Shown: piece by piece, positions 16,380-16,533 of the stretch
Position numbering within the stretch: position 1 is the first letter of the stretch
Layout of the letters: each line of letters starts with the position of its first letter
DNA from: a virus
Taxonomy: Duplodnaviria > Heunggongvirae > Uroviricota > Caudoviricetes
Virus record (IMG/VR): IMGVR_UViG_2802429225_000004
Length of the DNA: 44,726 nucleotides
Strand: one strand, 5' to 3'
Notes under the pieces: model-generated
Seen by the model: only the letters and a program-made list of their open reading frames with translations
What the model was told of the DNA's origin: nothing
Database searches by the model: none
Translations under genes and position numbers: made by a program

Positions 16380-16455
16380 GCCGACTTAGCTCAGTAGGTA
16401 GAGCAACTGACTTGTAATCAGTAGGTCACCAGTTCGATTCCGGTAGTCGGCACCA
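16380..16455 (+). tRNA. tRNA-Thr (anticodon UGU), thrU-like
   Basis: 76-nt cloverleaf folded by hand: acceptor GCCGACT/AGTCGGC, anticodon loop CTTGTAA, T-loop TTCGATT, CCA end encoded. Confidence 0.9.
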
Positions 16456-16458
16456 TAT

Positions 16459-16533
16459 GCGGGTATCGTATAATGGCTATTACCTCAGCCTTCCAAGCTG
16501 ACGATGCGGGTTCGATTCCCGCTACCCGCTCCA
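16459..16533 (+). tRNA. tRNA-Gly (anticodon UCC), glyT-like
   Basis: 75-nt cloverleaf: acceptor GCGGGTA/TACCCGC, anticodon loop CTTCCAA, CCA encoded; near-identical to remembered E. coli glyT. Confidence 0.9.

Follow-up and report, generated by a model that had tools for sequence, protein, structure and literature searches.

Shiga toxin (Stx) phages such as 933W carry the transfer RNA (tRNA) genes ileZ-argN-argO. In the phages SfI, Sf6, ST64T, PS3 and 21, tandems of tRNA-Asn(GUU) and tRNA-Thr(UGU) lie downstream of the late-gene antiterminator gene Q (PMC3636060), and Stx2f prophages carry two tRNA genes downstream of stx2f (PMC11489412). Here we describe a tRNA cassette in IMG/VR record IMGVR_UViG_2802429225_000004, a member of the Caudoviricetes, the whole 44,726-nt stretch of which is referred to below as the window. 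At positions 16380-16533 it bears a tRNA-Thr(UGU) gene and a tRNA-Gly(UCC) gene, 3 nt apart and of the type of Escherichia coli thrU and glyT. The cassette is real, intact, host-type, common, publicly annotated and discussed in the literature, and it is of an already known kind. As judged from the sequence, it probably supplies two functional, host-derived elongator tRNAs as a compact accessory ("moron") element of the lambdoid late-regulatory region, adding decoders for codons that the phage overuses. An initial annotation had interpreted the pair as a host tRNA operon fragment, captured and then shortened by deletion, that possibly supports late-gene codon usage, and this interpretation was partly supported. 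Mildly new are only the two conserved structured RNAs that flank the pair and the predicted sensitivity of the window allele to the tRNA-cleaving nuclease Old of phage P2.

ARAGORN called only two tRNA genes across the 44.7-kb window, arranged as follows:

16380-16455, plus strand: tRNA-Thr(UGU), called by ARAGORN (tgt at position 34) and by Rfam (RF00005, 73.8 bits, E 2e-14)
16456-16458, plus strand: 3-nt spacer TAT, read off the sequence
16459-16533, plus strand: tRNA-Gly(UCC) of glyT type, called by ARAGORN (tcc at position 34) and by Rfam (RF00005, 64.5 bits, E 7e-12)

Both cloverleaves score above the RF00005 gathering score of 29 and far beyond chance, and the coordinates, anticodons and spacing first reported for the pair proved exact, with the proposed check by tRNA calling returning both genes and the same anticodons. 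The resemblance to thrU and glyT noted at first is likewise borne out: tRNA-Thr is identical to E. coli K-12 thrU at 76 of 76 positions and tRNA-Gly to glyT at 72 of 75. Neither gene is truncated, each running from base 1 through to its encoded CCA end. The three differences in tRNA-Gly are C6 to U, G67 to A and U44 to C; the first two are compensatory, since they fall on the two sides of one acceptor-stem pair (C6:G67 replaced by U6:A67), which is the sole stem change, while U44C lies in the variable loop. Recognition by threonyl-tRNA synthetase (ThrRS) depends on G1:C72, C2:G71, G35 and U36, and that by glycyl-tRNA synthetase (GlyRS) on U73, G1:C72, C2:G71, G3:C70, C35 and C36. The UGU anticodon and the ThrRS identity elements are present in the window tRNA-Thr, as its identity to the functional host gene entails, and in tRNA-Gly all the listed GlyRS positions are as in glyT, with intact stems.

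Codon counts fit a role of the pair in decoding. We compared the window (52 open reading frames (ORFs), 11,776 codons) with 100 kb of K-12 core genes (83 ORFs, 29,950 codons), using a greedy ORF picker on both. ACA occurs at 15.0 per mil in the window vs 5.1 in the host core (2.9 times) and GGA at 14.9 vs 7.4 per mil (2.0 times), which places them second and fifth among all codons by absolute excess. Correspondingly, ACA and ACG make up 54% of threonine codons in the window vs 34% in the host core (chi-square p-value 1.6e-20), and GGA and GGG 44% vs 24% of glycine codons (p-value 2e-28). This overuse supports codon supplementation, as had been proposed for late genes in particular; the enrichment is present in early and late genes alike. 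In sister arrays there are further tRNAs, of Ile(CAU) and Arg(UCU) type, for AUA and AGA, likewise rare A-ending codons, and in SfI, where ACA reaches 17.3% vs 7.1% in its host, the tRNA genes received the same interpretation (PMC3636060).

Several observations weigh against this interpretation. AGA, AGG and ATA are over-represented 4.9, 4.3 and 1.8 times with no matching tRNA in the window, so that codon need and tRNA content match only partially. In one published comparison, lambdoid phages that have tRNA genes did not differ in codon adaptation from those that lack them (PMC4631060). Some related alleles are degenerate, with changes in the D-arm and anticodon and in the tRNA-Thr of JLK-2012, which indicates relaxed constraint in some lineages. 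Finally, the ratios above are relative to 100 kb of K-12 core genes read by a simple ORF picker, a baseline that is not the true host. We nevertheless favor codon supplementation because the promoter, leader and 3' structure described below are conserved together with the cassette, because the cassette recurs, and because of the codon usage itself.

The cassette lies on the late-gene strand, between Q, pR' and tR' on one side and the lysis genes on the other, and thus at the position just downstream of Q and tR' that had initially been noted. The pair starts 326 nt after the Q stop codon and ~235 nt after the tR'-like terminator, in the following context:

15359-16054, plus strand: late-gene antiterminator Q (Pfam PF06323 Phage_antiter_Q, E 7.7e-94), annotated in relatives as antitermination protein Q
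16038-16066, plus strand: pR'-like promoter TTGCAA-17-TATATT, overlapping the end and stop codon of Q (consensus scan, 9/12 matches)
16117-16146, plus strand: tR'-like strong intrinsic terminator, a 10-bp stem followed by a T-run, ending a promoter-proximal RNA of ~70 nt
16165-16213: remnant of a DNA-methyltransferase gene, its last ~50 nt including the stop codon; the gene is intact in relatives
16284-16317, plus strand: candidate sigma-70-type promoter of the cassette, TTGAAA-16-TAATAT or the overlapping TTTCCA-16-TATTAT with TG (consensus scan)
16326-16376, plus strand: 5' leader hairpin, GGUUCC-GA-GGGG ... CCCC/UCUU-GA-GGAACC, ending 3 nt before tRNA-Thr (minimum free energy fold, RNAalifold)
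16559-16659, plus strand: conserved structured RNA with a GCACUG/CAGUGC closing stem, then a U-tract (fold, covariation statistics)
16801-16827, plus strand: second intrinsic terminator, a 7-bp G+C-rich stem then T8, preceding the TerB-like gene and the lysis genes
17204-17629, plus strand: TerB-like ORF (Pfam PF05099)
17871-18263 and 18253-18528, plus strand: holins (Pfam PF16931 and PF05449)
18531-18908, plus strand: M15 endolysin (Pfam PF13539)

The assignment of the site at 16038-16066 to pR' is inferred from its position. The RNA from this site to the tR'-like terminator (16070-16141) has a sub-threshold Rfam match to isrJ (27.5 bits vs a gathering score of 37) and another to isrK, both of which are small RNAs of Salmonella prophages. 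In relatives such as E. coli Z0117EC0133 an intact DNA-methyltransferase gene precedes the tRNA cassette; in the window, the body of this gene has been lost by deletion, and tR' now adjoins its 3' end in a fusion.

The promoter-like site at 16284-16317 has an AT-rich block upstream and a G+C-rich stretch after the -10 hexamer. Otherwise diverged relatives keep both of its hexamers (-35 and -10) as well as the ATTTACAAAT block upstream of them, the common pattern being ATTTACAAAT, TTGnnn, 16-17 nt, TAnnAT and then the G+C-rich stretch. Arrays of four tRNAs have an analogous TTGCAA-17-TATTAT with CCTGCGCCC directly before the first tRNA, downstream of a tR'-like terminator. In loci with Thr-Gly alone, the leader hairpin sits between promoter and tRNA-Thr. 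It comprises 10 pairs with a tandem G-A internal loop, and across 20 distinct relatives RNAalifold found 95% of cells paired and two-sided changes in 4 pairs, values that none of 500 shuffles reached; slid controls were 25-74% paired. The hairpin may be a processing signal, a stabilizing 5' stem-loop or a released small RNA.

On the other side of the pair, the ~100-nt 3' structure begins ~25-30 nt after tRNA-Gly in ~68 of 124 related loci, the window included. Its closing stem GCACUG/CAGUGC is invariant while the internal hairpins covary: of 19 pairs, 94.6% paired overall, 8 are changed on both sides, again with 0/500 shuffles reaching these values. This element likely serves the tRNA transcript as its terminator or 3' RNA. 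When 16040-17210 was searched against Rfam at a permissive E-value, no family matched either the leader hairpin or the 3' element, the output consisting of the two tRNAs and otherwise sub-threshold noise (mir-983, Plastid-ycf2, leader peptides, isrJ/isrK). Nor did the 3' element motif match where the prophage Pas small RNAs are reported to lie in phage 2B8 (NC_049952). A long hairpin at 16652-16742, between the 3' element and the terminator at 16801, produced only spurious microRNA-precursor matches (mir-983, 33 bits). Most of the remaining loci have a different conserved hairpin after tRNA-Gly (GUCUUUCAGUCUGCGAUGAUGGG...CCCGGAGUGACUGAAAGAC; locus L002 at 6155-6230 and ~50 others, e.g. L007, L021 and L038), whose GAUGAUG...CUGA motifs recall C/D-box or kink-turn elements.

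This layout suggests that lysogens express the cassette independently, with the 3' structure and the 16801 terminator insulating it from the lysis genes. Transcription would start at the cassette's own promoter at ~16284-16317 and, after induction, Q-modified polymerase would also read through tR' into the cassette. RNase P would cleave the 5' end of each tRNA, freeing the structured leader, and 3' exonucleases would trim the 3-nt spacer, while the structured RNA with its U-tract and the 16801 terminator would keep lysogen cassette transcripts out of the holin genes. The products would supplement single host decoders, thrU for ACA/ACG and glyT for GGA/GGG, and the extra tRNA may relieve a translation bottleneck for the phage and for other horizontally acquired genes.

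The cassette is ancient and widespread among prophages of Escherichia, Shigella, Citrobacter and Enterobacter. With a 74-nt query across the Thr-TAT-Gly junction, 882 of 5,426 complete E. coli genomes gave matches, 1,078 in all and as many as five in a single genome, and the exact junction pattern recurs in Shigella flexneri, E. ruysiae, Citrobacter braakii and Enterobacter hormaechei (five enterobacterial species in total) and in at least 120 IMG/VR contigs. Records of the Escherichia phages phi467, vB_EcoS-683R6, vB_EcoM-606R7, vB_EcoS-689R5 and PhiR47_1 list the pair as tRNA-Thr/tRNA-Gly, and E. coli prophages also annotate a Thr-Gly pair after Q. One further junction, in a Corallococcus exercitus contig (L013; 423 nt, coverage 0.67), is almost certainly enterobacterial contamination of a myxobacterial assembly. 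The spacer is TAT in 127 of 129 extracted cassette copies and TAAT in seven further contigs. This near-universality indicates that the junction arose once and later spread, rather than being made in this phage; the event that formed it was single, ancient and outside this phage. The U6:A67 form of tRNA-Gly is present in more than 38 relative copies and the intermediate U6:G67 (a G:U pair) in four, while the complete window allele (U6:A67 with C44) is found in two of the 129 sampled copies, one being the window itself.

ARAGORN called both genes in ~125 of 133 loci. The loci as a whole show these array forms (numbers between names are spacer lengths in nt):

Thr-3-Gly alone: 58 loci
Met(CAU)-1-Lys(UUU)-2-Thr-3-Gly: 37 loci
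Met(CAU)-1-Arg(UCU)-2-Thr-3-Gly: 19 loci
minor forms: the remaining loci

PGAP annotates the CAU tRNA of these arrays as tRNA-Ile. The second tRNA called Lys(UUU) is of Arg(UCU) type with the anticodon loop CCUUUAA in at least 37 arrays (L003, L008, L010 and ~35 others); L082 and L125 have a thrU-type body with anticodon UUU at the Thr position, and four arrays include a tRNA-like gene with an unassignable anticodon. JLK-2012 has Asn-5-Thr-3-Gly, its tRNA-Thr being degenerate and uncalled by ARAGORN. Morganella phage IME1369_01, first taken for a distant Thr-Gly pair (82% identity), was rejected as such: it has Lys(CUU)-2-Gly and no tRNA-Thr. Thr and Gly thus each adjoin other tRNAs elsewhere, with spacers of 1-8 nt to varied partners, which points to extreme compaction as a general feature of these arrays.

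How the two genes came to lie together is a separate question, and here the scenario of the initial annotation fares less well. In K-12 the order is thrU, 8 nt, tyrU, 116 nt, glyT, 6 nt, thrT and then tufB; thrU and glyT are indeed parted by tyrU, and the 209 nt between them (tyrU plus 124 nt of spacers) compare with 3 nt in the window. It is conceivable, if rather doubtful, that a phage took up a fragment of the thrU-tyrU-glyT-thrT-tufB operon and then cleanly lost tyrU and the spacers. The host-type sequences and the order, with Thr upstream of Gly as in the host, agree with this, and TAT can be read as the host T that follows thrU joined to the host AT that precedes glyT. Such a reading, however, fits 4 of the 64 trinucleotides, ~6% by chance. 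The alignment to the host operon that had been suggested as a check also told against capture: with a blastn word size of 7, matches between 15900-17300 and the operon are confined to the mature tRNAs ±1 nt, with no remnant of leader, spacer, tyrU or thrT. An apparent upstream homology of glyT into the 3' end of tRNA-Thr (89.7% over 97 nt, gapped) is an alignment-scoring artefact and not real homology. Since homology stops within 1 nt of each tRNA, operon capture with deletion is possible but unproven. No intermediates were seen either: among IMG/VR Thr-Gly spacers, the 4-34 nt range held only TAAT (7 loci) and the 35-65 nt range none, 66-209 nt lying outside the scan.

The shared operon is itself not independent evidence for capture. 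In E. coli, glyT is the sole gene for a UCC tRNA, with which the genome scan is consistent (median of one place per genome). Likewise, thrU is the sole UGU tRNA gene of MG1655 (PMC12445682). Selection for decoders of ACA and GGA would therefore pick both genes however they were acquired, and in related phages Thr and Gly also occur beside other tRNAs at spacings of 1-5 nt, as in Met-1-Arg/Lys-2-Thr, Asn-5-Thr and Lys(CUU)-2-Gly (see also PMC3636060). Two IMG/VR contigs of one genome (L146 at 3164-3283; L145 at 2144-2263, minus strand) carry phage Met-Lys-Thr, after which come the host spacer TCAAGTCC, unchanged, and the initial 35 nt of tyrU, which is broken in the anticodon loop. This junction suggests that host-operon sequence can land beside a phage tRNA-Thr; yet it occurs in none of the 5,426 complete E. 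coli genomes, and both contigs diverge at the same base. An assembly chimera or secondary recombination is equally possible, and we do not treat the junction as reliable evidence.

Alternatives to codon supplementation also bear on what the pair does. It is unlikely that the tRNAs are neutral passengers of no benefit, occupying a small, recombination-permissive moron site and repeatedly homogenized with identical host genes. In favor of this, 129 relatives hold 21 Thr and 19 Gly sequence variants, disruptive ones among them, while the host genes are essentially invariant. The absence of a codon-adaptation difference between lambdoid phages with tRNAs and those without (PMC4631060) and the lack of tRNAs for the other overused rare codons of the window also agree with it. 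Conversely, the cloverleaf is intact in most copies (the ~125 of 133 loci in which both genes were called) and more than 38 copies share the compensatory acceptor-stem change. Promoter, leader hairpin and 3' structure are moreover co-conserved across otherwise diverged flanks, and 16% of E. coli genomes have the cassette, often with copies in several of their prophages.

A role in counter-defense, in which the phage tRNA-Thr(UGU), perhaps with tRNA-Gly(UCC), would replace host tRNA destroyed by tRNA-cleaving nucleases such as P2 Old, appears still less probable. Old, the best-known case, cuts host tRNA-ThrU in the anticodon stem and excises the anticodon arm, which is lethal to lambda-infected cells; phage Thr(UGU) tRNAs rescue such cells, with lambdoid phage 21 having a protective one (PMC12445682, 2025). 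These protective tRNAs combine an altered CNG motif with a shortened anticodon stem, resistance requiring both, whereas over-expressed host tRNA-ThrU protects little or not at all (PMC12445682). The window tRNA-Thr has the unaltered, sensitive anticodon arm of host tRNA-ThrU (ACUGA/UCAGU; ACTGA/TCAGT in the DNA), as do 121 of 129 relatives, and its stem is not shortened, the A27:U43 pair being intact (the 27:43 pair is the one lost in resistant tRNAs). An anti-Old role is therefore unlikely for this allele. In favor of such a role, the 3' strand of the anticodon stem is shortened or altered (TCACC or TCATC) in five of 129 related copies, and likewise in JLK-2012. By our own reading of the sequence, the anticodon stem of the window tRNA-Gly(UCC) likewise contains a paired CAG/CUG motif, and this tRNA has A37. 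Since tRNA-Gly is absent from the substrates listed in PMC12445682, its being an Old-type target is speculation.

Comparably improbable, in our estimate, is that the cassette is a self-contained transcription unit whose leader hairpin and 3' RNA, once released by tRNA processing, serve as prophage small RNAs that have escaped annotation or as signals for processing or antitermination. The same holds for the idea that the tRNA pair buffers the cell against Old-like anticodon-stem nucleases, for which it would matter that each tRNA is the only host decoder of its codons and that the anticodon arms of both have a paired CNG motif plus A37. We dismissed the notion that the tRNAs are remnants of a phage attachment site (attP) that rebuild a host tRNA gene upon integration: tRNA-gene integration is common in temperate phages, e.g. 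SfI into thrW (PMC3636060), but the anatomy is not that of a partial tRNA beside an integrase, both genes being full length and situated in the late region, ~15 kb away from the window's integrase end. Many phages with different integrases, moreover, have them at this same Q-proximal site.

Taken in its entirety, the window is a lambdoid prophage of mosaic composition, with integrase and exonuclease at its left end and lambda-like head genes. In the early region, the best E. coli prophages are ~90% identical; this region also contains a sok antitoxin RNA at 11878-12052 (Rfam RF01794, 109.5 bits), marking a hok/sok-type toxin-antitoxin locus, and in a relative hokD is annotated at the corresponding position. 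The late and structural region (19000-43900) is without a close relative among 50,697 phage records, of which the best covers 23% at 75% identity. Overall, phage-record coverage of this region is at most 23% at 75-77% identity, and the lambda-like terminase-to-capsid genes are ~77% identical. For 16055-17204, no complete E. coli genome matches at >85% identity over at least 80% coverage. The host of this phage may be an enterobacterium other than E. coli.

As a tRNA pair the cassette is of little importance: it is a frequent, annotated accessory, for which the standard codon-supplement explanation fits the codon counts. It is found in about one-sixth of E. coli genomes, often in several prophages each, and through this multiple carriage prophages can add several gene copies of two tRNAs that are single on the chromosome. 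Because tRNA-ThrU is the lethal target of P2 Old, the Thr allele of a prophage predicts escape from P2 interference, a host-type arm being sensitive and an altered arm resistant; the window carries the sensitive type. The flanking RNAs, which are without an Rfam match and travel with the cassette, could be sought in existing transcriptome data.

Compared with described systems, the closest counterparts are the pairs of phi467 (a Stx2f phage), 683R6, 606R7, 689R5, PhiR47_1 and many E. coli prophages, which share the tRNAs, their order, the TAT spacer and the late-region position and are 97-99% identical to the window over 154 nt. In phi467 the pair follows stx2f (stxAB) and tRNA-Gly is identical to glyT, whereas the window has no toxin gene upstream and a rarer Gly allele. 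The post-Q tRNA genes of other lambdoid phages (the SfI group and 933W) share the niche before the lysis genes, the tight tandem arrangement, the host-rare codons and the proposed codon-supplement role. Their partner tRNAs differ, with Thr-Gly only in the window, Asn-Thr in the SfI group and Met/Ile(CAU)-Arg/Lys-Thr-Gly in sister loci. The host tufB operon has the same mature tRNAs, with Thr before Gly and encoded CCA ends; unlike it, the window lacks tyrU, thrT and tufB and has a promoter, leader hairpin and 3' element of its own, none of them shared. Finally, the Old-resistant tRNA-Thr21 and tRNA-Thr6 (PMC12445682) resemble the window tRNA-Thr in their UGU anticodon, phage-borne state and lambdoid relatives, but combine an altered CNG motif with a shortened stem where the window tRNA-Thr keeps the unaltered, sensitive arm.

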